From Gammaproteobacteria bacterium (lineage in GTDB: Bacteria > Pseudomonadota > Gammaproteobacteria > Thiohalomonadales > Thiohalomonadaceae), in assembly GCA_041685115.1 (NCBI GenBank), contig JAWLGK010000017.1, forward strand, positions 27,712 through 59,711: a DNA stretch of 32,000 nt, written 5' to 3'. Under the pieces are notes generated by a model. The model saw only the letters and a program-made list of their open reading frames with translations, was not told the origin of the DNA and ran no database searches. How positions within the stretch are numbered: position 1 is the stretch's first letter; every line of letters begins with the position of its first letter. Of this stretch, positions 2,662 to 16,151 are shown in pieces. A program made the position numbers and the translations under genes.

Positions 2662-2916
2662 GTGACCGTCGATATCTCCCTGCCGCCGCTTTTCATCGAC
2701 CTCGACCAAGTGGCGACCCTGACCACGCTCTCAGCCTCGACCATCCAAAACATGGTCGCTCGAAACGAGTTCCCGGCGCCGCGCGAGCTGTCCAGCCGCC
2801 GCGTTGCCTGGTTGTACCGCGAGGTGATGGAATGGGCGGAGAGTCGGCCGGTTTCGAGCATCCTGCCGCCGCCGAACACTGGGGCCAAGAAGCCGCGCGG
2901 CGTGCCCTCAGCCTGA
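2662..2916 (+). CDS. alpA: AlpA-family phage/island transcriptional regulator or excisionase (copy 1)
   Basis: GTG 2662 follows GGTGGGAGG. The segment LIDLDQVATLTTLSASTIQNMVARNEFPAPRELSSRRVAWLYREVMEWAESR fits the AlpA/MerR-like HTH pattern (FP.P..L..R...W...EV..W). Only the last 84 codons of track ORF 2161..2916 are used. Confidence 0.8.
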   Translation: MTVDISLPPLFIDLDQVATLTTLSASTIQNMVARNEFPAPRELSSRRVAWLYREVMEWAESRPVSSILPPPNTGAKKPRGVPSA

Positions 2917-3713: not shown

Positions 3714-3998
3714 TGGGCTTCAAAGCTTCGAAAATGGGGAATTAAGGGGTGTGCCCTGCGCCTGGAGCGAACGTCCAGGATTGCTCTCCGCAGTGGCAGC
3801 ATCCAAGAGGATGCCGGGTGCGGGTCACGGCTTCGCGCACTAAGCCGGGCACGGAACAAGCCGCCCACGGCCCGTACAGTTCCCGAAGGAACCACGTTCC
3901 CCAACCCCCTTCCGGCTGGGTCGCAGGGCACCCGGCCATTGTAGCGGGCGCGGTCGGGCATGGCACCGGGGCATTCACCCAGCCCATCCCGCCGGGGC

Positions 3999-4741: not shown

Positions 4742-5290
4742 CTACTCGGCGCCCGGTGCGTCGATGCCCAGGCGCTCACGGCGGCCCACAAGGAAGGCGT
4801 CCCGCTTGGCGGCCTCAGCCAATACCCGGTTGTAGAGGTCATCCAGCACCTCCTTGGGCGGGAACACGTTCAGGCTGATTTCCTCTTTGACCTCCACCCT
4901 GTCCCGCCATAGGTGCGGCTGGCGGTTGCGCAGCCATAGGCTCTGCGCCTGCACGCTGGGCGGCACCTGGCGCCGGAGCGGCCGGACAACAGCCCCCGAC
5001 CCTTCTCCCTCGGCAACTGGCCGTTCCTCCGTGACGAAGTGCCCGCCCACGGCGCTCCTGTAGAGGCTGTCCGCCACGTCGGAATCCGCCGCCATCTTCC
5101 CCGCCGAGATGGACGCGCAAAAATCGGCGTGAGCGCGCTTCCAACGGTTGATGGTCGCCTCGTCCACCCCGAAGAAGTCAGCCAAGCCCGCATCCGTCAG
5201 CCCCAACAGGCAGAGCTTCCGGGCCTGTTCGGCGAACTCCTCACGGTACTTGGTCGGGCGGCCTCGCCTACCCCTGGTCGTCGTGCTCAT
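4742..5290 (-). CDS. terminase small subunit-like DNA-binding protein (paralogue 1)
   Basis: Good SD (AAGGGGG). The N-terminus GRPTKYREEFAEQARKLCLLGLTDAGLADFFGVDEATINRWKRAHADF and the C-terminal LWLRNRQPHLWRDRVEV match the pattern I associate with phage TerS proteins (GRP.KY...HTH...W...hpeF...NR.P..WRD). The assignment is from memory and was not searched. Confidence 0.6.
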   Translation of the reverse strand: MSTTTRGRRGRPTKYREEFAEQARKLCLLGLTDAGLADFFGVDEATINRWKRAHADFCASISAGKMAADSDVADSLYRSAVGGHFVTEERPVAEGEGSGAVVRPLRRQVPPSVQAQSLWLRNRQPHLWRDRVEVKEEISLNVFPPKEVLDDLYNRVLAEAAKRDAFLVGRRERLGIDAPGAE

Positions 5291-5858
5291 CGGTCAGCCC
5301 CCTTTCTCGCATCACGGCCTGCTGCCGCTCGCGCGCCTGCTGCATGCGATCCTCGAACAGGCGCAGCAGCGCTTCACCATCCGGGCCGCTCACGGTCACA
5401 TCGGCCTGGTGCTCAATCCGGTCGCGCCACTTCTCGGGCTGCCGGTTCTTCAACCAGATGAACGCCGCCCCGGTGTCCGGCGGGTAATGCTTGGTGAGCG
5501 GGGTCAGCGTTACCAAGCCCTGATAGTTGGAGACGTGGACATCCGGGTGGGAGTAGCCGATGGCGCGCTGGTAGAGGGCAGCGGCCACCTTTGCGTCGGC
5601 ATCCGACTTGCCCTCTTTTATGGACTGCAAAAATTCGGGATGCGCCCCTTTCCAGCCGTGAAAGGTGCGCTCGGACACGCCGAAGAAGGCCGCCATCTCG
5701 GCATCGGTTTGCCCCAGCAGCGCCAGCCGGCGGGCCTGTTCGGCATAGTCGGCGCGGTAGAGCGTCGGACGGCCGCGCGCCGGCTTCTCCTTCGCCTTGC
5801 TGGTGCTCTTGCGGGCCTGCTGCGGCTGGCGCTTGGGCTTACTGGATGGCGTGGTCAT
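5268..5858 (-). CDS. terminase small subunit-like DNA-binding protein (paralogue 2)
   Basis: GRPTLYRADYAEQARRLALLGQTDAEMAAFFGVSERTFHGWKGAHPEF ... IWLKNRQPEKWRDRIEH is clearly paralogous to 4742..5290. The ATG at 5858 (MTTPSSKPK...) is chosen because upstream codons overlap ORF 5839..6045. The start is uncertain. Confidence 0.6.
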   Translation of the reverse strand: MTTPSSKPKRQPQQARKSTSKAKEKPARGRPTLYRADYAEQARRLALLGQTDAEMAAFFGVSERTFHGWKGAHPEFLQSIKEGKSDADAKVAAALYQRAIGYSHPDVHVSNYQGLVTLTPLTKHYPPDTGAAFIWLKNRQPEKWRDRIEHQADVTVSGPDGEALLRLFEDRMQQARERQQAVMRERGLTDEHDDQG

Positions 5859-6045
5859 TTTCGGGGATGGGCCTCTGCTCGACGGGCAGGTGGTGAAAGG
5901 ACGCGGCCAGCTCACCCAGGACAATCTCAGCCGCCTTCCGAAGGTCTGGCGAGATGTGCGGGGCGATGATGATGCCGCCCTGCTCGTGCAGGCGGGCAAA
6001 GAGCATCAGCGCCCACAGGATGCGATCTTCTTTCGTTTCGGGCAT
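5839..6045 (-). CDS. hypothetical protein (68 aa)
   Basis: Strong SD (AAGGAGCGGAG) before ATG 6045. The ORF is tightly packed within the minus-strand operon. Confidence 0.5.
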   Translation of the reverse strand: MPETKEDRILWALMLFARLHEQGGIIIAPHISPDLRKAAEIVLGELAASFHHLPVEQRPIPENDHAIQ

Positions 6046-6360: not shown

Positions 6361-6585
6361 TCAGGCCCTTGGCGTGCTGAGCGGCACCGTCAACCGCCGG
6401 CGGGCTTCCTTTGCCCGCTGTTCCCTTTCCGCACTGATTGCCCGCGCGATGCCAACCAAGCAACGATTCCCGGTCTCCTCGGCGATCTCACGGCAGAGAT
6501 TGAGCCGGTCGCCGTGCTGTTCGGCCAACACCTCGTCAGAGGTCAGCGGCGCCCGGATGCGATTCGGTAGCAGCATCGCCTTCAT
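6361..6585 (-). CDS. hypothetical protein (74 aa)
   Basis: ATGA start/stop overlap with the upstream gene at 6582..6585. Confidence 0.45.
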   Translation of the reverse strand: MKAMLLPNRIRAPLTSDEVLAEQHGDRLNLCREIAEETGNRCLVGIARAISAEREQRAKEARRRLTVPLSTPRA

Positions 6586-7370
6586 GCCCGGAATCCCGGA
6601 TAGCGCAAGCTGCGCTTGCTACCTGATCGCTCCCAGTCGTCGCGATCAATGGCCGTAAGTGAACACAGTGTCATCGGAATCAGTAGCTCGACGAAGTGGC
6701 CGTCCTTGTCCACAGGCGAACTCAACGGCATGCCGATGGACTCGATCACCAGCGGCGAGTAGGTGCGCCCTTTGTATTTCATGGCGAGCCTCGCCGGCGC
6801 GTTGGGCGGGAGCGCTGCATATGCCATCGCCTCGTCCAACGGCTTTCCTTGCGCGAACTGCTTGATGCCTTCGAGGACCGCCATGATCGGGCCATCGTCC
6901 GCCAGACGCTCCGGCAGCGTCCACTTGACGAGCTGTTCAACCGGAGCTTCAACCTCTTTCGCTGGATCGCGCCACGCCCGGAAGAGCGCCACCACCTGAA
7001 TCTTCAGCGGCGGCATACCAGCGAAGACTTGGGTGGAGTTCAGCTTCGTAACGCCAGTGCGCCCCTCGAACTTGCCCATGAATTTCGAGAGCGAGCCACC
7101 CGGATCGGTGAATGCCTGTATCGCACCACTCGATAACATGGCCCTCATGGTTGGTGCCATGTTGCCGCTGTCCTCGAAAGGCGAGGACCACCCTAACTGC
7201 ATGTCCAAACTGCACTCGGTTAACGCAGCCTGAACCGTGGGAATGGGCCGCTCCTGACTGTCCTTCTCGATGCGCTTCCAGTACCTGGACGACCCTACGC
7301 GCTCCACCGGCCAAAAAGTGGCGATCAGGTGTGGCGAGAGCCCGTCCCAAAGCGAGGTCAACTCAGCCAT
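6582..7370 (-). CDS. hypothetical protein (262 aa), function unknown
   Basis: Uninterrupted ORF in the operon that overlaps the upstream gene by 8 nt. No motif was recognised. Confidence 0.6.
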   Translation of the reverse strand: MAELTSLWDGLSPHLIATFWPVERVGSSRYWKRIEKDSQERPIPTVQAALTECSLDMQLGWSSPFEDSGNMAPTMRAMLSSGAIQAFTDPGGSLSKFMGKFEGRTGVTKLNSTQVFAGMPPLKIQVVALFRAWRDPAKEVEAPVEQLVKWTLPERLADDGPIMAVLEGIKQFAQGKPLDEAMAYAALPPNAPARLAMKYKGRTYSPLVIESIGMPLSSPVDKDGHFVELLIPMTLCSLTAIDRDDWERSGSKRSLRYPGFRA

Positions 7371-7572
7371 TGCCGCCGCCCGCCGTTCCGTGCGCGTGGG
7401 CCAACAGCAATTCCGCCGCCTTCACCCGATCAGCCGGCGGCGCCGTGCCGTCGTTCGCGACCGCAACCAGTGTTGCGATGGCGTCCTGCGCGTGACGGCC
7501 CGCGCGAGTTCTGATGCTCGCGGCTCCCAGGGGCCGCCCGCCAGGGCTGGGCTGCTGAACGTTGCTGGTCAT
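7363..7572 (-). CDS. hypothetical protein (69 aa) with a TerS-tail-like motif
   Basis: SD GGAGAA lies 5 nt upstream of the start. AQDAIATLVAVANDGTAPPADRVKAAELLLAH resembles a helix common in small-terminase-type proteins. This is a weak recollection. Confidence 0.5.
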   Translation of the reverse strand: MTSNVQQPSPGGRPLGAASIRTRAGRHAQDAIATLVAVANDGTAPPADRVKAAELLLAHAHGTAGGGNG

Positions 7573-7699
7573 GCTGGTTCTCCGAAGGCGGCCGGGTCGG
7601 CCTCATCCGAACTGGAATTCAGCGGTGGCTATTCCCGTGACGTGCGGTCTTTTATTCGCCACGCCCGCCCGGCCATTGAACGGTTTGTGCTGCTTGGCG

Positions 7700-8365
7700 T
7701 TACATCACGGCCTGCATCGCGGAAACCGCCTTGTGCGCCAGCGCGGCAAAGCCAGTGAGGCGGGGAGCGGCATCGGGCACAGGCCGGCGCGAAACTGGCA
7801 CCGAGAAGCCGTGCGGCAGCTTGCTTTCGTCCTTGGTCTTCAGGAACTCCACCAGACAGGCGTTTTCGGCCTCCAGGGCTTCCCGTTTGGCGGAGAAAGC
7901 GGCGTAGTCGGGCGTTGGGGCTAGCCTCTCGACAACCGCCTTGTCCGTGACGCCCAAAGCCTTCAACTCCTCGCGCTTCCGTCGCATGGTGCCCTCCGCG
8001 CACTGGATCTCCCTCGGAATGCCGTTCAGCTTTCCGACAATCTCCATGTGGCGCGTCGCCGCCGCGTTGAAGACGGGAGCCAGGCGCTCGTTATCCGCCC
8101 GTTCCAGCGCGGCCATATCCTCGCTCAGGGCTGTGATGGTGCGCCGCGTGGCGATTGCTTCCAGGCCGAATTTTGTGACTGCCTGGAAATGGGTTTCGTC
8201 GGGGAATTGTTGGCGCACCAGCACCAGCAGCACCTCGGGACGAAGCTGCTTGACCGCCTGAGACAGGTCCTCGCGCAGTCGGACGGCGGCGCGCATGGCC
8301 TCCGTGTCATTGCGGATGGCGCGGAGTTCGTCAGCAGTGGGCAACGGTGGGTTGATCTTGGGCAT
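7700..8365 (-). CDS. hypothetical protein (221 aa), predicted helical/coiled-coil
   Basis: SD AAGGAGAA lies 8 nt upstream of ATG 8365. The central region is rich in E/K/R/L/A. No family was recognised. Confidence 0.6.
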   Translation of the reverse strand: MPKINPPLPTADELRAIRNDTEAMRAAVRLREDLSQAVKQLRPEVLLVLVRQQFPDETHFQAVTKFGLEAIATRRTITALSEDMAALERADNERLAPVFNAAATRHMEIVGKLNGIPREIQCAEGTMRRKREELKALGVTDKAVVERLAPTPDYAAFSAKREALEAENACLVEFLKTKDESKLPHGFSVPVSRRPVPDAAPRLTGFAALAHKAVSAMQAVM

Positions 8366-8419
8366 GGTGATGGTTCTCCTTTCGGTTTCTGTGCATTCTC
8401 GCCGGGGTTTTGAGGGTTT

Positions 8420-8737
8420 CTATCCCACGTTTTCCGAGTTTCCCGCACTGCCCGCCGGTTCGGCGCCGCGCAGTTGGGCGAGGCCCGCCACCTGCGATTT
8501 CAGCCACGAGTGCAAACGGCCGGCCACCCGCTCGGCGCGCTCGATGCGTGAAAGCGCGGCGAACGCGCCCGGTTCGCCCAGTTCAGCGGCGATCTCCTTG
8601 GCGGCCAGTCGCACGACAACTTCGGGCGTAGCAACGTTGGCGGATTCTCGCAGGGTGGCAATGCACGCCTGGGCGACGCCCATGACAATGCCGTCCTGCT
8701 CCAGGTCGGCGGTGATGGTGTGGTCAGTGGTGCTCAT
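8420..8737 (-). CDS. hypothetical protein (105 aa)
   Basis: SD AGAGGA lies upstream of ATG 8737. Confidence 0.55.
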   Translation of the reverse strand: MSTTDHTITADLEQDGIVMGVAQACIATLRESANVATPEVVVRLAAKEIAAELGEPGAFAALSRIERAERVAGRLHSWLKSQVAGLAQLRGAEPAGSAGNSENVG

Positions 8738-9074: not shown

Positions 9075-9884
9075 TCACGCGGTCGCCCCTTCGGTCATGG
9101 CTTGCGCGCCCTCGGCAACGTCGGCGCCGCTGGCAATGTCGGGAAAGCGCCGGAGCGCCAGGGCCGCAGACTCGGCGGCTTCCTTGGCGCGCTCAACGGT
9201 GCTTACGAGCTTCGCGCCGGCCTTCATGTCCTCGAACTCCGGATTCAGTTCGGCGAAGCGCTCCAAGGCTGCGTGAGCCTCACGCTGGGCCGCTGAGACC
9301 GTGGCTACGGTCTGACCAAGGCACTCCATGCGGTCGTGCATCCGGCGCAGCCAGTCCATCTGCTCCAGCCGCGCCTGATCGAACTCGCGGAACATCCACG
9401 CGGAAACCTGCCGCTCCATGGTCATGCGGGCGCCCACCTCCCAGTCGTCCATGGCGCCGAAGAGGTAGTCGATGGAGACCTCGTAAACCTCGGCGGCCCG
9501 ACGAATTACCCACAACGGCAGCGACTCGCGATCCGCAGGTGCTTCGAACGCAGCGAGCTTGGCCTTCGTGATGCCAATTCGCGCGGCGGCCTCCCACTGC
9601 TTCAGTCCGGTCAACTCTCGGGCCTCAGTGAGGCGTTGCCCAACGATCTTCACGACCGTCGCCGCCCTCAGATGCCGACCGCCAGGGGGCGCTTCCACCC
9701 CTTCGCCCATCTGTTCGCCGTCCTCGGGCCGCTGAGGCGCTTCCTCCGGTACCGGGGTTGGTTGGTGCTCCAACATGCTCGTTCTCGCCTCCTGTACGGT
9801 GTGCGCTGGTCTGGTGTTGGCGATCATCGCGGCGCGAACGGCCGCCGCTGTCGGCTTTTTCTGAAAGGGGAAAAAGTCGCTCAC
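9075..9884 (-). CDS. XRE-family HTH regulator with extended N- and C-terminal regions
   Basis: The central IVGQRLTEARELTGLKQWEAAARIGITKAKLAAFE is a Cro/CI-type HTH. The GTG start overlaps the primase-helicase stop (GTGA at 9881..9884). The true start could be internal. Confidence 0.65.
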   Translation of the reverse strand: MSDFFPFQKKPTAAAVRAAMIANTRPAHTVQEARTSMLEHQPTPVPEEAPQRPEDGEQMGEGVEAPPGGRHLRAATVVKIVGQRLTEARELTGLKQWEAAARIGITKAKLAAFEAPADRESLPLWVIRRAAEVYEVSIDYLFGAMDDWEVGARMTMERQVSAWMFREFDQARLEQMDWLRRMHDRMECLGQTVATVSAAQREAHAALERFAELNPEFEDMKAGAKLVSTVERAKEAAESAALALRRFPDIASGADVAEGAQAMTEGATA

Positions 9885-11758
9885 CGCACCCCCTCCAGGT
9901 CATCGGCTTCGGCCTGTTCGATCTCGCCTTGGGTGTAGTCGTCCGCTATGGAGTAATTCACGTAGCGCCAGGGCCGCCCGTCCGGCTTGCTCAGAAATTG
10001 GTGGCTCTCCCGGTCGAACCACAGCGCCGCCCGTGGCTCGTCGTCGCCGTTCCGTTGCTTTGCGCAGATCAGCATTGCCCCCGGCTGCTCCTGGATTTCC
10101 AGCGGCGCCGGGATGCCGTCGGCTTCGGCGCGGCGGATCGCCTCCTCGCGTTTCTTGTTGCGCCAGCAGAGCAAGAGCGTGTCCGTCATATCCGAAATGC
10201 CGCCGGTGCCCTTCACGTCGAACTTGCCCGGAGGCTTGTCCTCGGACTCGCCCTTTCGTGTGTGCGCAACCAACATCACGTGGGCATCGTGTTCTTTCGC
10301 GAAGTCCGTCAGCCGGTCAACGAACCGCTTCTGGCCGTTGTAATCGTCTTCAGCGAACCCGCACTTGGCGAGGTTGTCGATCACGAAGAGGCGGATGCCG
10401 TAGCGGCGGCGGGCGTAGGCGAACACGTCGAGAATGCGATCAGCCTTTGCGGTGCCCACCACATCGAAGACCCAGAGCCGATCCGCGTACCACCGATGGA
10501 TCGCGCGAATGTAGGGCTCGGATGGTACGGCCATCGCCGCCGCCTGCCGGGTGAGCCTGCGAAGCCACTTGACCGGCTTGAACTCCATCGAGGCGATGCA
10601 CGCGCGCTCCCCCTGCGATAGCGCCCCCAGGGTGAGGTGGCCGGCAATCTCGGACTTCCCGTGTCCGTTCACGCCAGCAAGAACGGACACCTCGCCAGGC
10701 CGGAAGAGCAACAGGCCGTGCAGCTTCCGCCAGGGCGGCAGGAACCCGCGCTCGGCCTCATCGGCCGGATAGAACTCGCGCACCACGTCATCGGCGTACA
10801 GGGCGGCGGAGCGGAGTTCGTCGGGGTCCAGCGTTCGGGCCGCTGTGAGGAGGTTGCGTGCTTGTGTGGGCGTCCACCCTGCCCGCAGCAGGTCGTTGGC
10901 GTCCTTGTGCGGCGCCGGCATCGTGACGACTCGGCAACGTTCGCGCCCCAGCCGCTCCGCGATCACGGCGGTGGCCTCTTGGCCTGGGCCGTCGGCGTCA
11001 AGCGCCAAGTAAATCGTGTCGAACCGCTCCAGGTGCTGGAACTCGTGTTCGATCCACTGCTGCTTGGCTCCGCTGCCACCGCCAAACGGCACCGACAGGG
11101 CGGGAGCGCCAAGCTGAAACATGCTCATGGCGTCCACCTCGCCTTCGGTGATAGTCACCTCGCGGGCGTTGTCGGGGATGGCTTGCCAGCCGAACAGGCA
11201 CGGCTGGGTGTCCTTCTCCACCCGCACTTGCTTCTTGCCGTTGGGCCGGTCGAGGCCCAGATACTTCACCGCAATGAGGTCGCCATCGCGCAGGGAGGGG
11301 AGCACGATTTCGCGCCCCCGCTCGGCAACGCGGTAGGCGGCCAGGGTATCGGGGGTCAATCCGCGCTCGCGGGTGAGGTAGTCGAGCACGGGGGAGCCGT
11401 CGCGCGGGGCTTGGCACTTCGGCCGCTCAGGGCGCCGGTACTCTTGGCGCCGATGGCCGGCGAACTCGGGATCGCGCACGCCAAGATGGGCCTTGGCCTC
11501 GGCGATGGCCTGAGCCAGCGGAATCGACCGGCAGGCGGCCCAAAGGTCCAGGAGGTCGCCGCTCTCCCCCGTCGCGAAGTCACCCCACACACCAGTCTTC
11601 TCGCCGGTCAGGTGCACCCCCAAGCTTTTGCCGGCCTCGCCGTCGGTCGAGCCGGCGCGCCACTCGTGACCCTCGCGCTTGCCATTGGGCAGCAGCAGCT
11701 TTGCCACGGCCTCCGCGTCGCGGGCGAGCATGGCGGCAATGTCGCGCGCCGTCGTCAT
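9881..11758 (-). CDS. bifunctional primase-helicase (TOPRIM domain + DnaB/RecA-like NTPase)
   Basis: TOPRIM motifs are ITEGEVDAMS and YLALDADGPGQ. Walker A is LAGVNGHGKSE and Walker B is LFVIDNL. ATG 11758 overlaps the upstream stop (ATGA). N-terminus: MTTARDIAAMLA...GKSLGVHLTGEKTGVWGDFATGESGDLLDLW. Confidence 0.85.
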   Translation of the reverse strand: MTTARDIAAMLARDAEAVAKLLLPNGKREGHEWRAGSTDGEAGKSLGVHLTGEKTGVWGDFATGESGDLLDLWAACRSIPLAQAIAEAKAHLGVRDPEFAGHRRQEYRRPERPKCQAPRDGSPVLDYLTRERGLTPDTLAAYRVAERGREIVLPSLRDGDLIAVKYLGLDRPNGKKQVRVEKDTQPCLFGWQAIPDNAREVTITEGEVDAMSMFQLGAPALSVPFGGGSGAKQQWIEHEFQHLERFDTIYLALDADGPGQEATAVIAERLGRERCRVVTMPAPHKDANDLLRAGWTPTQARNLLTAARTLDPDELRSAALYADDVVREFYPADEAERGFLPPWRKLHGLLLFRPGEVSVLAGVNGHGKSEIAGHLTLGALSQGERACIASMEFKPVKWLRRLTRQAAAMAVPSEPYIRAIHRWYADRLWVFDVVGTAKADRILDVFAYARRRYGIRLFVIDNLAKCGFAEDDYNGQKRFVDRLTDFAKEHDAHVMLVAHTRKGESEDKPPGKFDVKGTGGISDMTDTLLLCWRNKKREEAIRRAEADGIPAPLEIQEQPGAMLICAKQRNGDDEPRAALWFDRESHQFLSKPDGRPWRYVNYSIADDYTQGEIEQAEADDLEGVR

Positions 11759-12501
11759 ACCGCCCCCACGAGCCAGTCGGGTCTCTCCGCTGGGGCTGGC
11801 GTGCCCCTCCGGCTTTCGAGGTACTTTCGAACCCACGGGATCGGTTCGCTGACATCCTCGCGTTCGGCGCGCTCGATAGCCTGGACCACGGCGGCGTCGC
11901 CGTGATTCTTCCGCATCAGGCCCAGAAAGCTACGTGCCCCCTTCGCCGCGCAGCCCTTCGCCGTCAGGAAGGCGAGGCAATCGCCAAAGATTGGATCTGG
12001 CGCCGGCGCGGTCGCTGTTGCTGGCGTTGCCGAATCCGAATTGCCCGGCGGCGCGGCGGCGCCAGCCGAAGGCGGAACCTCCGAAGGAGGGTTAAGGGAA
12101 TCAGGAATCAGTAAGAGGGAATCAGCCGGGCCGGTTCTGTGCTCGCCCTGGTCCTGTACCGTGCAAGCACTGTGCTCGCCCGGTGCCGGTATCGTGCTTC
12201 CCGATTCCCGGCAGTGCGGGTTCTGGTGCTTGGTGAAGTTCAGCACCTGGATGAACCGCTCATTTCCAACGTGGTAACGCAGGATGAAGCCGGCGTCGTG
12301 AAGCTCGCCCAGCATGTCGTCCACGCTGCCGTCGTCGTAGGGCAAGATTTCGGCGCGGATGCGCTTCGGACGGTCTTCGAGGCGGCCTTCGCGGTCGGCA
12401 AGGCACCAGAGGCCGGCGAACAGCAGCCGGGCCAGAGGCGAGCACTCCGCCAAGGTCTCGTTCTTGAAGAAGCCGGGCTTGATGTTGCGGGCACGGGCCA
12501 C
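11755..12501 (-). CDS. replication-associated protein (phage replisome-organiser-like N-terminal domain)
   Basis: GTG start with SD ACGGGGG. The N-terminus ARNIKPGFFKNETLAECSPLARLLFAGLWCLADREGRLEDRP is a motif I recall from prophage replication modules. The gene sits immediately upstream of, and is coupled to, the primase-helicase. The middle of the protein is a low-complexity Pro/Ala linker. Confidence 0.55.
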   Translation of the reverse strand: MARARNIKPGFFKNETLAECSPLARLLFAGLWCLADREGRLEDRPKRIRAEILPYDDGSVDDMLGELHDAGFILRYHVGNERFIQVLNFTKHQNPHCRESGSTIPAPGEHSACTVQDQGEHRTGPADSLLLIPDSLNPPSEVPPSAGAAAPPGNSDSATPATATAPAPDPIFGDCLAFLTAKGCAAKGARSFLGLMRKNHGDAAVVQAIERAEREDVSEPIPWVRKYLESRRGTPAPAERPDWLVGAV

Positions 12502-13635: not shown

Positions 13636-13732
13636 AGCGCCCCCTATCAGCGCACCCTTGAAGAGGAAGCCGCGCCGGCCGGGGAAGGGTGCCCCGGTTG
13701 TCTCCCCGTCGGGATAGGCGCGGCTGTACTCG

Positions 13733-14995
13733 TTACGATGCGGCCCGCGTCTCCTTGCGCAGCGGCACCACGTTCCAATCCTTCCCCTCCTCGCACGCCA
13801 CGATGAAGGTGGCCAGTTTCGCCAGGGCTTCCTTGCGCTCTTCGAAATAGATGTGCCGGTCGTAGATGCCCTCAACGCCCTTGATTTTGTGGTTCAGGCA
13901 TCGCTCGGCGATGTGCGGATCAGTTCCTAGTGCCGCGAGGTGAGTCCGGGCGGTTCGTCGGAGATCGTGGACGGTGAAAGAGGGAAGCCCATGCTTGACC
14001 TTCGCCAGGGCCACAGAGAGGGTCGATTCGCAGACGTGGGGAAGCATCCGGTTCTGCATCTTGCGGGCCGGCAATACCCAAGCGCTGTTGCCGGCGAAGC
14101 GTTTCAATTCTTTCAGCCATCCCACTGCCTGGGGCGGTAGCGGGATATCGATGGCAGTGTTGGTCTTTGTCCGCTCGGCCGGCAGATACCAGACAGCATT
14201 GTCCAGGTCGAACTCCGCCCATGGCGCGGCCATAAACTCCATCTTGCGCACCGCCAGCACCAACAGCAGCTTGACCGTCAGGCCGTTCTCGACGCTGAAG
14301 CCCTTGGCGTTACGCATGGCCTCGAACAGCGTAACCAGCTCGTCGCGGGACAAGGCGCGGTCGCGGGCCTCCTCCTTGCCGCCGGCGTCGTTCAGGTCGA
14401 AGGCAGCGGCAGGGTTGAATTCGATCATGTGCCGCTTCACGGCGTAGTCGAACATCCGCCGCACCCATCGCAGCACGTCGTTGGCGATGGTCGGGGCGCC
14501 GCGCTTGACGATGGTCTGGAGCATCGCATCGACGTGCAGCGGCTTCACGTCCTCGATGTTCAGCTTGCCGATGTTCGGCTTGATGTCCTTCTCGATACGG
14601 CTGCGCACGATGTTGGGATGCTTCCAGCGGCCCAGGATCATGCGCTCGAAATACTCATCCGCCAGTTGCCCGACCGTCACGGCGTGCTTCTCGGCCTCGA
14701 TCTTGGCCAGGGCCTCGGCCTTGCGCTCCTGCTTCTCGCCGGCCACGTCGTGCCCCAAGGCCACGCGGGCGGAAAGCTCTTTCGCCTGCTTGCGGGCATC
14801 AGCAAGGGACAGCTCGCGATAGCTGCCCAGGCTCATCACCCGCGCCTTGCCTCCGAAGCGGTAGCGAAAGCGCCACGTCGGAACCGCGTCATTCCCGCGG
14901 AACCGCAGGTACAGCCCATCGCCGTCGCCGCGTCCCTCGAACCGCTCGCCGGCCTTGATCCAGTTGCGGATCTGCACGTCCGTCAGTTTGCCCAT
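13733..14995 (-). CDS. int: tyrosine recombinase, P4-type (DUF4102 N-terminus) integrase
   Basis: ATG 14995: MGKLTDVQIRNWIKAGERFEGRGDGDGLYLRFRGNDAVPTWRFRYRFGGK is the typical P4-family N-terminus. The C-terminus carries HDLRRTARTHLAALG...LNH...GIYDRH, which supplies the catalytic R, H-x-x-R and Y. The 34 codons upstream in the track run through the att repeats. Confidence 0.9.
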   Translation of the reverse strand: MGKLTDVQIRNWIKAGERFEGRGDGDGLYLRFRGNDAVPTWRFRYRFGGKARVMSLGSYRELSLADARKQAKELSARVALGHDVAGEKQERKAEALAKIEAEKHAVTVGQLADEYFERMILGRWKHPNIVRSRIEKDIKPNIGKLNIEDVKPLHVDAMLQTIVKRGAPTIANDVLRWVRRMFDYAVKRHMIEFNPAAAFDLNDAGGKEEARDRALSRDELVTLFEAMRNAKGFSVENGLTVKLLLVLAVRKMEFMAAPWAEFDLDNAVWYLPAERTKTNTAIDIPLPPQAVGWLKELKRFAGNSAWVLPARKMQNRMLPHVCESTLSVALAKVKHGLPSFTVHDLRRTARTHLAALGTDPHIAERCLNHKIKGVEGIYDRHIYFEERKEALAKLATFIVACEEGKDWNVVPLRKETRAAS

Positions 14996-15011
14996 GTCAC
15001 CGCCTCGCCAT

Positions 15012-15034
15012 GTGTACCCATTCCCGTGTACCCA
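15012..15034. repeat. two GTGTACCCA direct repeats (15012..15020, 15026..15034), inverted relative to the GGTACAC half-sites of the att repeat
   Basis: Read directly. With 15046..15064 they form a cluster of four related 7-9-mers, two in each orientation, just upstream of int. These are likely recombinase-binding sites. Confidence 0.55.
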
Positions 15035-15045
15035 ATCCCTCATCA

Positions 15046-15064
15046 GGTACACGCTTGGGTACAC
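15046..15064. repeat. Right copy of 19-bp direct repeat GGTACACGCTTGGGTACAC (putative att core)
   Basis: Identical 19/19 to 1030..1048. It lies 51 bp upstream of the integrase start. Confidence 0.8.
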
Positions 15065-15108
15065 GCCCATTCTGAGATTTGGTGAGCCAACATGCAACGA
15101 CAGGAAAC

Positions 15109-15172: not shown

Positions 15173-16027
15173 TTATTCGATGTTTTGCACCTGTTCGCGC
15201 ATCTGTTCAATGAGAACCTTGAGCTCCACGGCCACGCGGGTGGTCTCCGCATCGGCCGACTTGGAACCCAGGGTGTTGGCCTCGCGGTTGAGTTCCTGCA
15301 TGAGGAAATCCAGCCGCCGGCCCACCGGCTGCATCTGCTCCAGCACACGGCGCACTTCGGCGATGTGGGTCTCCAGGCGATCCAGCTCCTCGGCCACGTC
15401 GATGCGCGTGGCGAACACGACCATCTCCTGTTCGAGCCGCTGCCCATCCAGTTCGGCCTTCACCTCGGCCAAGCGCTCCACGAGACGCTCGCGGAAACGC
15501 GCCTGCACCTCGGGGAGGCGCGCCCGCACCGTGGGCAACTGGGCGGTCATGGCGTCACAGCGCTGGCGGATGAGCTCGGCCAGCTTGGCACCCTCGCGGG
15601 CGCGGGCCTCGTTGAGTTCGCCGAGGGAGCGATCGAGCAGGGCGAGGGCGTCGGCGTGCAGACGCTCCAGATCGGGCGCCGGGGCCTGCAACACGCCGGG
15701 CCAGCGCAGGATGTCCATGGAGTTCACCGGCGCAGCGTCATAGACCAGGCCGTCGACCTCACGACTGAGCTGCGCCAGGGTGGCGGCCAGGGCGTGGTTG
15801 AGGGCGAGTTGGCCGGCGGACGCGGGCGCCGGCGTGAAACGCAGGGCGCAGTCCACCTTGCCGCGTGAAAGCGCCGCACCGATGCGCTCCCGCAGCGCAC
15901 CTTCGAGCACGCGCAGGTCGTCCGGCAGCCGCATGGAGACTTCCAGATATCGGTGATTCACCGAGCGCAGTTCGAGGGCCAGGACCCCATAGTCGCCGTG
16001 GGTCTCCTGCCGGGCAAAAGCGGTCAT
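15173..16027 (-). CDS. yicC: YicC-family stress-induced protein
   Basis: RSMTAFARQETHGDYGVLALELRSVNHRYLEVSMRLPDDLR aligns with E. coli YicC (MIRSMTAYARRE...MRSVNQRYLE). The C-terminal NREANTLGSKS motif is present. ATG 16027 is preferred; the alternative is 16069. Confidence 0.9.
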   Translation of the reverse strand: MTAFARQETHGDYGVLALELRSVNHRYLEVSMRLPDDLRVLEGALRERIGAALSRGKVDCALRFTPAPASAGQLALNHALAATLAQLSREVDGLVYDAAPVNSMDILRWPGVLQAPAPDLERLHADALALLDRSLGELNEARAREGAKLAELIRQRCDAMTAQLPTVRARLPEVQARFRERLVERLAEVKAELDGQRLEQEMVVFATRIDVAEELDRLETHIAEVRRVLEQMQPVGRRLDFLMQELNREANTLGSKSADAETTRVAVELKVLIEQMREQVQNIE

Positions 16028-16151
16028 ACTTCTCAATTTCGAGCTCTCCTGCGCGGAAAAGAGCGCCATGGTAACCGAAAACCGTCCCCCCGGGAGAAGG
16101 CCATCCGGCCCTGTGGTAGGCTACCGCGGTGGACCGGCGAACGGTCATGGC

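Follow-up and report, generated by a model that had tools for sequence, protein, structure and literature searches.

Two tandem, diverged small-terminase paralogues in a phage satellite-like island without a large terminase

The DNA analyzed here, referred to as the window, is a stretch of 32,000 nucleotides (nt) from the genome of a gammaproteobacterium (family Thiohalomonadaceae; assembly GCA_041685115.1, contig JAWLGK010000017.1, positions 27,712 to 59,711). On its minus strand, between positions 4742 and 5858, lie two overlapping genes, terS-A and terS-B, whose products (A and B) resemble the small terminase subunit (TerS) of phages. The gene pair is housed in a 14-kb island that resembles PICIs (phage-inducible chromosomal islands) and is inserted between gmk (guanylate kinase, 315 to 962) and yicC (15173 to 16069). 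The genes and their domains are as follows.

5268 to 5858, minus strand: terS-A, the upstream small-terminase paralogue, 196 amino acids (aa), ATG start; phrog_309, E = 5.8e-53; AlphaFold2 (AF2) model with a predicted local distance difference test score (pLDDT) of 80
5643 to 5777, minus strand: GRPT motif and helix-turn-helix (HTH) DNA-binding domain of A, residues 28 to 72; AF2 helices at 37 to 47, 52 to 59 and 63 to 72; aligns with the Sf6 gp1 DNA-binding domain
5271 to 5414, minus strand: C-terminal tail of A, residues 149 to 196, the presumed docking module for the large terminase subunit (TerL), with the end ARERQQAVMRERGLTDEHDDQG; phmmer matches to the tails of long phage TerS
4742 to 5290, minus strand: terS-B, the downstream small-terminase paralogue, 182 aa, ATG start; phrog_309, E = 1.1e-42; AF2 pLDDT 77
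5132 to 5266, minus strand: GRPT motif and HTH DNA-binding domain of B, residues 9 to 53; AF2 helices at 18 to 28, 33 to 40 and 44 to 53; aligns to Sf6 gp1 residues 6 to 77
4745 to 4897, minus strand: C-terminal tail of B, residues 132 to 182, the presumed TerL-docking module, EVKEEISLNVFPPKEVL...GRRERLGI; phmmer matches to the tails of long phage TerS

The two genes overlap by 23 nt, and a Shine-Dalgarno-like AGGGGG is located 8 to 9 nt 5′ of the terS-B start, within the end of terS-A. Their third-position GC content (0.83 to 0.85) is typical for real genes in a window of 65% GC. A first-pass annotation, made from the letters alone, had reported adjacent overlapping genes with GRPT, WKxAH and NRQP motifs; both open reading frames (ORFs) and the motifs are indeed present (GRPTLY...WKGAHPEF...IWLKNRQPEKWRDRIE in A, GRPTKY...WKRAHADF...LWLRNRQPHLWRDRVE in B). 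The proteins are 42% identical over 165 residues (BLASTP, E = 3e-40), which is far beyond chance, and both genes are under purifying selection, with pairwise ratios of nonsynonymous to synonymous substitution rates (dN/dS) of 0.19 to 0.30 for A and 0.16 to 0.38 for B at dS values of ~0.5 to 2.5. The same annotation had described strong differences at both protein ends, which the identity between A and B in successive segments bears out.

N-terminal tails: 12%
GRPT motif and HTH: 64%
Long helix: 46%
Beta-hairpin: 23%
WLKNRQP helix: 55%
Linker: 17%
C-terminal helix: 31%

Over the whole C-terminal tails, A and B are 27% identical.

Both proteins belong to the PHROGs family phrog_309, “terminase small subunit,” with weaker matches to four or five other TerS phrogs. 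The proposal that they are TerS-like thus stands, since the profile search places them there and not in a generic regulator family, and structural matches to a TerS oligomerisation domain, at weak E-values, were obtained as well (see below). Pfam returned no family above its cut-off for A or B, its sub-threshold matches being to HTH families only (HTH_23, Xre-like, CII); this most likely reflects a gap in the Pfam coverage of phrog_309-type TerS and is not evidence for a regulator. In tblastn searches of phage genomes, A is 51 to 55% identical to the annotated TerS of CUS-3, P22-like and other phages. Sequence searches of the PDB gave Sf6 gp1 and other TerS as top matches, at marginal E-values (0.05 to 0.5) that are suggestive at most.

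The AF2 models of A and B share one architecture, in which a three-helix HTH, modeled with pLDDT values above 90, is followed by a long helix, a beta-hairpin, the WL(K/R)NRQPxxWRDR helix, a disordered linker and a C-terminal helix. Solved small terminases occupy the first Foldseek ranks, namely, 2AO9 and Sf6 gp1 (3HEF) for A, and 2AO9, Sf6 gp1 and the oligomerisation domain of SF6 G1P (3ZQQ/3ZQP) for B. At weak E-values (0.03 to 0.6), the central part of both proteins (long helix, beta-hairpin and helix) resembles that of the ring-forming TerS 2AO9, 3HEF and 3ZQQ/3ZQP.

To place the genes in context, ~170 loci with relatives were fetched from GTDB genomes and IMG/VR; they are denoted by L numbers where they need to be told apart. 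In ~130 phage or prophage loci a single relative lies directly upstream of a TerL-sized ORF (420 to 590 aa) that starts at or just past the terS stop codon, and TerL Pfam domains were detected in five of the eight downstream ORFs scanned as a sample of these loci. Such an ORF follows the gene in nearly all of the more distant relatives. Unlike their phage homologues, terS-A and terS-B have no adjoining TerL gene. The island was also claimed to lack a large terminase altogether, and this was confirmed: the ORF list, Pfam and PHROGs revealed no large terminase, capsid, portal, tail or lysis gene in it, and no TerL anywhere in the window. The only credible island ORFs of at least 300 aa encode an integrase and a primase-helicase; the remaining long ORFs were rejected as genes because they are antisense to called genes and fail a codon-position GC filter. 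It is the absence of TerL beside the terS genes that defines a satellite TerS, and A and B are very probably of this kind.

Segment-wise searches against all collected homologues revealed A and B to be mosaics. A is composed of a K/R-rich N-terminal arm, a core with a beta-hairpin of the ancestral type and an “A-type” C-terminal tail, while B has a derived beta-hairpin and a tail of the type found with one clade of phage TerL (clade 1, below). The ancestral hairpin is common to essentially all phage TerS of the family, and the derived one occurs in islands only. The core and hairpin of A are phage-like (66 to 71% protein identity to phage cores; 72 to 78% DNA identity for the A genes of the window and L001). 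The tail of B, EVKE(E/D)I(S/N)LNVFPPKEVL…GRRERLGI, is that of its closest phage relatives; the tail of A is largely island specific, with significant but weaker kinship to the tails of another group of long phage TerS. The phage TerS nearest to the island proteins have 270 to 314 aa and carry an extra conserved N-terminal domain of ~55 aa (MAAKPKL(T/S)PE(Q/E)W...GW) and a low-complexity linker rich in K, S and V (for example, L013 9608 to 10552, L268 8001 to 8918 and L092 6833 to 7738). This domain, which may be a second DNA-recognition module, is missing from all island TerS. An ORF of 68 aa, which shares 20 nt with the start of terS-A (5839 to 6045, minus strand), has counterparts of 65 to 73 aa at the same position in relatives; these share no sequence similarity with it, so that position alone is conserved, and its candidacy as a split-off N-terminal domain of a phage TerS was rejected for want of similarity.

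A survey of related islands, which the first-pass annotation had suggested as a check, found the duplication in at least five TerL-less lineages. Tandem pairs are confined to TerL-less islands: the window, L004 to L007 (one island, present in 14 contigs), L008/L009, L105, L172/L173 and probably L128 and L270. No second TerS was found in any of the ~130 TerL-linked loci. In a neighbor-joining tree the island TerS group together in a separate clade, which divides into subclades I (A-type), II (B-type) and III, and the closest relatives of the window genes are TerL-less. Every tandem pairs subclade I or III with subclade II, the B-type gene always comes second, and the two genes overlap by 4 to 29 nt (23 nt in the window, 29 nt in L004, 4 nt in L008 and L172). 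Two apparent tandems, L049 and L051, were discarded as single genes broken into two adjacent short ORFs, probably by a frameshift. A scan of GTDB genomes gave no tandem among the 80 best loci, and a scan of JGI metagenomes with a B-clade profile returned mostly contigs of 1 to 3 kb, with L270 as one further probable tandem.

In most of the related islands the module is otherwise retained but includes just one TerS. The members of the family seen in Pigmentiphaga, Alcaligenaceae, Propionivibrio and Zoogloea assemblies (L012, L015, L017 and L020) likewise have one TerS each. Lone A-type genes occur in L001/L090, L010, L011 and L091, lone B-type genes in L170 and L171. Directly after an intact A gene, L001/L090 still have the initial 22 codons of a B gene (…KRGRPTKHRRAKFDE, stop), which indicates that the pair was ancestral in this lineage and that B was deleted later. 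No B remnant was detected downstream of the lone A-type terS of L010, L011, L012, L017, L020 and L091.

The C-terminal tail is a TerL-specificity or docking module in P22 gp3, lambda Nu1 and Sf6 gp1. We compared tails and terminases in 14 phage loci with a long TerS, which represent eight lineages differing by at least 13% in TerL. All five lineages with a B-type tail have a TerL of 506 to 508 aa (clade 1, for example L013 10542 to 12062; 71 to 87% identical among themselves), and all three with an A-like tail have one of 521 to 525 aa (clade 2, for example L092 7742 to 9313; 73 to 78% identical among themselves); the clades are 35 to 40% identical to each other. Tail class thus tracks TerL clade across the eight lineages without exception, the pattern expected, by analogy with those phages, if the tail is a TerL-specificity module. 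The TerS of L013 and L266, which belong to different TerL clades, are 81% identical in their cores and 33% in their tails. Specificity residing in the TerS tail is also discussed in PMC6739421.

The window tails were placed on this scheme. That of B is 51 to 69% identical to clade-1 tails (phmmer E-values down to 1e-23) and 16 to 27% identical to clade-2 tails, so that B can be assigned, from its sequence, to clade-1-type terminases with good confidence. That of A is 33 to 42% identical to clade-2 tails (phmmer E-values of 1e-8 to 1e-6) and 22 to 33% to clade-1 tails; its assignment to a clade-2-type TerL partner is less certain. Tails also appear to move. The B tail encoded by island L004 and the TerS tail of phage L268 share 85% identity, both as protein and over 158 bp of DNA, and the remainder of the gene has 73% DNA identity, which points to tail exchange between satellites and phages. 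The subclade III proteins and the B copy of L172 carry further tail types, and hence every tandem pair joins two different tails. At least four tail types occur among the islands, one of them nearly identical to a phage TerS tail.

We put at about even (a probability of roughly 0.5) the chance that A and B are two independent satellite TerS adaptors that dock onto different helper terminases. The satellite would rely on a helper phage for capsids and TerL and would supply its own TerS to steer the helper motor to satellite DNA. After excision and replication, the minus-strand gene string that runs from an HTH_31 regulator gene (below) to terS-B would be expressed, and A and B would each assemble into a TerS oligomer, bind a packaging (pac) site on satellite DNA by means of the HTH and engage a helper TerL with the C-terminal tail. 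With two tail classes the motors of two helper terminase lineages would be usable, which would widen the helper range, and the diverged beta-hairpin of B may keep its rings from mixing with A or with helper TerS. The occurrence of each paralogue type alone in related islands, together with the loss of B in L001/L090, argues that each is a self-sufficient TerS. We infer the TerL-docking role of the tail in this family by analogy, and likewise infer ring formation, pac recognition and helper identity for A and B. More tentatively, it is tempting to regard the TerS of this island family as an adaptor built from modules, a DNA-binding head that changes rather little and a TerL-docking tail that can be exchanged, with tandems extending the helper range and the B-clade hairpin insulating the rings.

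Several observations weigh against two independent adaptors. The Foldseek matches of A and B have probabilities of 0.75 to 0.99 but weak E-values (0.03 to 0.6). The likeness of the A tail to clade 2, at 33 to 42% over a background of 22 to 33%, is concentrated in the last ~22 residues, so that the TerL partner of A is uncertain and could be a third lineage. The co-variation of tail and TerL comes from just eight independent phage lineages. A search for a pac site, which included sliding-window synonymous conservation within the genes, identified none, and no helper phage is present in the window. Finally, the overlapping, probably translationally coupled genes and their fixed A-then-B order fit a hetero-oligomer too.

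A hetero-oligomer, in which A and B are obligate partners in one mixed TerS ring that recognizes pac and recruits a single helper TerL, is unlikely but is the best of the alternatives. The gene overlaps suggest translational coupling and co-expression, the A-then-B order is fixed in at least five lineages, and the HTH domains are 64% identical. However, related islands with an A-type or a B-type gene alone retain the rest of the module, L001 has lost B and kept A intact, and the upstream partner may come from subclade I or III with B unchanged. In addition, the presumed oligomerisation hairpin is the most diverged structured segment (23% identity), which disfavors mixed rings.

Somewhat less likely still is a division of labor in which one paralogue does the work of a satellite TerS and interference with the helper is the main task of the other: A might co-assemble with and poison helper TerS rings, or B, with its phage-mimicking tail, might take TerL from helper TerS. 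The phage-like core and hairpin of A and the tail of B, a near copy of clade-1 phage TerS tails, would suit these roles, and there are precedents for satellite proteins that target helper TerS or TerL in Rpp (PMC6739421), Ppi (PMC5052747) and Gpi of the PLEs (elements akin to phage-inducible chromosomal islands; PMC11417361). Against this, the HTH, core and tail are complete and conserved in A as well as in B, purifying selection acts on the two to a similar degree, and each type occurs alone in islands that still need packaging. Competition for TerL is, moreover, inherent to any satellite TerS, and the model therefore differs only partly from one of two adaptors.

That the duplication is redundant or decaying, with both copies doing the same job or one being lost, is improbable. 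Although B was lost in the L001/L090 lineage and most related islands have a single TerS, the window copies are both intact at 42% identity, dN/dS is ~0.2 across lineages with dS values of at least ~1, five or more lineages have retained the tandem, and the divergence is concentrated in specific modules and not even. The idea that A and B are HTH transcription regulators of the island and not terminase subunits, for which the sub-threshold Pfam matches and the label “XRE family regulator” given to a homologue by one source could be cited, is scarcely credible in view of the strong phrog_309 matches, the position of homologues immediately upstream of a TerL-sized ORF in ~130 loci (TerL by profile in five of eight sampled), the TerS-like architecture beyond the HTH and the TerS at the top of the structural matches. 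The three options that the first-pass annotation had offered for the duplicated TerS fare unequally: dual helper (TerL) specificity is favored by the domain-level evidence, and the presence of either paralogue type on its own in related islands weakens the case for a hetero-oligomer and for a TerS/anti-TerS pair.

The other features of the island are listed below.

1030 to 1048: left copy of the putative attachment (att) repeat GGTACACGCTTGGGTACAC, a perfect 19-bp direct repeat with 15046 to 15064
2668 to 2916, plus strand: AlpA-family excisionase or regulator; Pfam Phage_AlpA, E = 3e-11
6582 to 7370, minus strand: PmgG-like “head morphogenesis” protein, 262 aa, a core gene of the island family; phrog_1114, E = 5e-44
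7363 to 7572, minus strand: 69-aa ORF coupled to the PmgG-like gene; phrog_15261 (unknown function) in nine of nine members
9075 to 9884, minus strand: HTH_31 regulator, first in the long string of minus-strand genes whose last members are terS-A and terS-B; Pfam HTH_31
9881 to 11836, minus strand: Toprim/DnaB-like primase-helicase, 651 aa, the island replication gene; Pfam Toprim_2, AAA_25 and DnaB_C
13733 to 15097, minus strand: tyrosine integrase; Pfam Arm-DNA-bind_3, Phage_int_M and Phage_integrase
15046 to 15064: right copy of the putative att repeat GGTACACGCTTGGGTACAC, a perfect 19-bp direct repeat with 1030 to 1048

The two repeat copies, spaced 14,016 bp apart, form the island borders and are likely the att sites. 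Each repeat internally holds GGTACAC twice. No tRNA is present near the insertion site between gmk and yicC. As the longest integrase ORF takes in the right copy, translation of the integrase probably begins downstream of 15046. Directly downstream of the integrase gene, at 13655 to 13724 of the minus strand, lies an int-alpA RNA (Rfam RF02996; 66.9 bits versus a gathering score of 35.8). The primase-helicase and HTH_31 genes are followed by genes for small conserved proteins, the PmgG-like protein, terS-A and terS-B, a Gp49/HI1420 toxin-antitoxin pair and AlpA; a replication-initiator-like protein of 248 aa is also encoded by the island. The other ~17 kb of the window are ordinary host chromosome (kinase and phosphatase genes, rph, rdgB, a ROK kinase and a NiFe hydrogenase). 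The RNase PH of this uncultured host clusters at 90% or more with that of a Thiohalomonadaceae metagenome-assembled genome, which suggests a bacterium like those of that family.

We compared this inventory with the published criteria for PICI-type satellites (de Sousa et al. 2023, PMC10085698). The island has a terminal integrase with att repeats, an AlpA regulator, a primase-replicase, and terS and morphogenesis genes without TerL, structural or lysis genes; judged by its genes, it fits a PICI-like phage satellite that lacks TerL. The placement of alpA at the far end of the island and on the opposite strand is atypical for a PICI. Two close relatives, L090 and L091, appear in the IMG/VR viral collection as contigs of 13.5 and 14.2 kb, which is at most suggestive of induction, replication and transfer with a helper.

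Between the HTH_31 gene and the terS genes, an island-specific string on the minus strand (6582 to 8737) encodes proteins of 105, 221 and 69 aa and then the 262-aa PmgG-like protein. It was found in 13 to 17 of the fetched related loci, including all TerL-less islands inspected and none of the TerL-linked phage loci inspected. Homologues of the PmgG-like protein itself turned up in 16 related loci, which again include all TerL-less islands inspected but no TerL-linked phage locus among those inspected. The place of the PmgG-like gene is taken in L004 by a gene for a protein of 763 aa with a Glyco_hydro_19 domain. The 69-aa ORF is kept in 13 related loci. The first-pass annotation had seen a TerS-tail-like helix in it; the ORF is real, and the resemblance is not significant, with phrog_641 (TerS) matched at E-values of 0.01 to 0.03 in two of nine members only and no TerS among the PDB profile matches, so that a TerS fragment was rejected.

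The HTH_31 protein is homologous (E-values of 1e-56 to 1e-54) to the product of the gene immediately upstream of the long terS in clade-1 phages (L013 9039 to 9656, L268 7328 to 7981 and L028 8920 to 9657). The satellite therefore carries a copy of a packaging-linked phage regulator, possibly a late-gene activator or a helper sensor. Scanned with simple consensus sequences, the minus strand from 9884 to 4742 showed neither a sigma-70-like promoter nor a terminator-like site.

A non-coding element of ~210 nt is shared by the window (3735 to 3945, minus strand) and L001 (10650 to 10895). Two of its blocks are 97 to 100% identical between the two island types, above the ~80% DNA identity of the flanking terS-A genes. 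In L001 the element comes straight after terS; in the window the toxin-antitoxin pair stands between them. Its predicted fold is closed and multi-stemmed, with one compensatory pair change (CCUGG/CCAGG to CCGGG/CCCGG), and just upstream of it is a sigma-70-like promoter (3966 to 3938, minus strand). The element had no Rfam match at E ≤ 0.1 and was found in only these two island types; it could be a small RNA or a cis element of the packaging module.

In P22, pac lies embedded within the terminase genes. Synonymous-site conservation rises to ~0.8 (versus 0.6 overall) at homologous codons of the two genes, 71 to 90 of A (5589 to 5648) and 51 to 70 of B (5081 to 5140), in alignments of five sequences per gene, which are too few to trust; an in-gene cis element such as pac is at this stage a weak lead from the sequence. 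The iterons at 2954 to 2997, which the first pass had put forward as a possible pac site, do exist: AGTAACTTT occurs three times at 2962 to 2997, with a spacing of 11 to 12 bp, just past alpA. Nothing links these repeats to packaging, and they look like an origin or a regulator-binding array.

Literature searches turned up neither a satellite nor a phage described as having two TerS paralogues in tandem. If the interpretation as two adaptors is true, the island would be the first satellite with more than one TerS. The determinants of TerS-TerL specificity, for most phages poorly defined, could then be located with a natural chimera series of the same head and different tails. Two TerS adaptors with different docking tails would be a simple genetic route to a broader helper range. 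Helper choice and switching are central in satellite biology and affect the spread of islands with defense or virulence genes. The analysis also defines a conserved, unnamed module in islands of ~8 to 15 kb from uncultured Proteobacteria, which comprises the HTH_31 regulator, the 105-, 221- and 69-aa proteins, the PmgG-like protein and TerS.

Satellites with their own TerS are well known from the Staphylococcus aureus pathogenicity islands (SaPIs; TerS_S of SaPI1 and SaPIbov1) and Gram-negative PICIs such as PmCI172 (PMC6092414, PMC10085698). As in those islands, a TerL-less, presumably helper-dependent element encodes a TerS homologue that would redirect the helper motor to satellite DNA. It also shares their architecture, with int, alpA, a primase and a morphogenesis-like gene, and with terS closing the late module. 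The window differs in having two tandem, diverged terS genes instead of one, with tails of classes that in phages are paired with different TerL clades. A and B share with the TerS of the Sf6 gp1/CUS-3 type (phrog_309; PDB 3HEF, 4DYQ) an N-terminal GRP(S/T)xY motif, the HTH and a helical core, and the 51 to 55% identity given above is to CUS-3-type proteins. Unlike those phage genes, the island genes have no adjacent TerL, and Sf6 gp1 itself is only marginally similar (E-values of 0.05 to 0.5).

Other strategies for the redirection of packaging employ Rpp (PMC6739421), Ppi together with cos mimicry (PMC5052747), and the PLE protein Gpi with GpsA and GpsB (PMC11417361). The Vibrio cholerae PLE, which acts against phage ICP1, resembles the present island in that more than one dedicated satellite protein (GpsA/GpsB with Gpi) specifies packaging of its own genome by the helper TerL. 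No Gpi-like gene turned up in the island, in which no search aimed at Gpi was made. GpsA and GpsB are not reported as mutual TerS paralogues in PMC11417361 and act with a TerL inhibitor, whereas A and B are clear paralogues of phage TerS. Like Rpp of Escherichia coli PICIs (PMC6739421), A and B would be satellite proteins that alter the DNA specificity of helper packaging; Rpp mimics the DNA-binding domain of TerS, binds the helper TerS and has no TerL-docking tail, whereas A and B are full-length TerS homologues with tails of their own.

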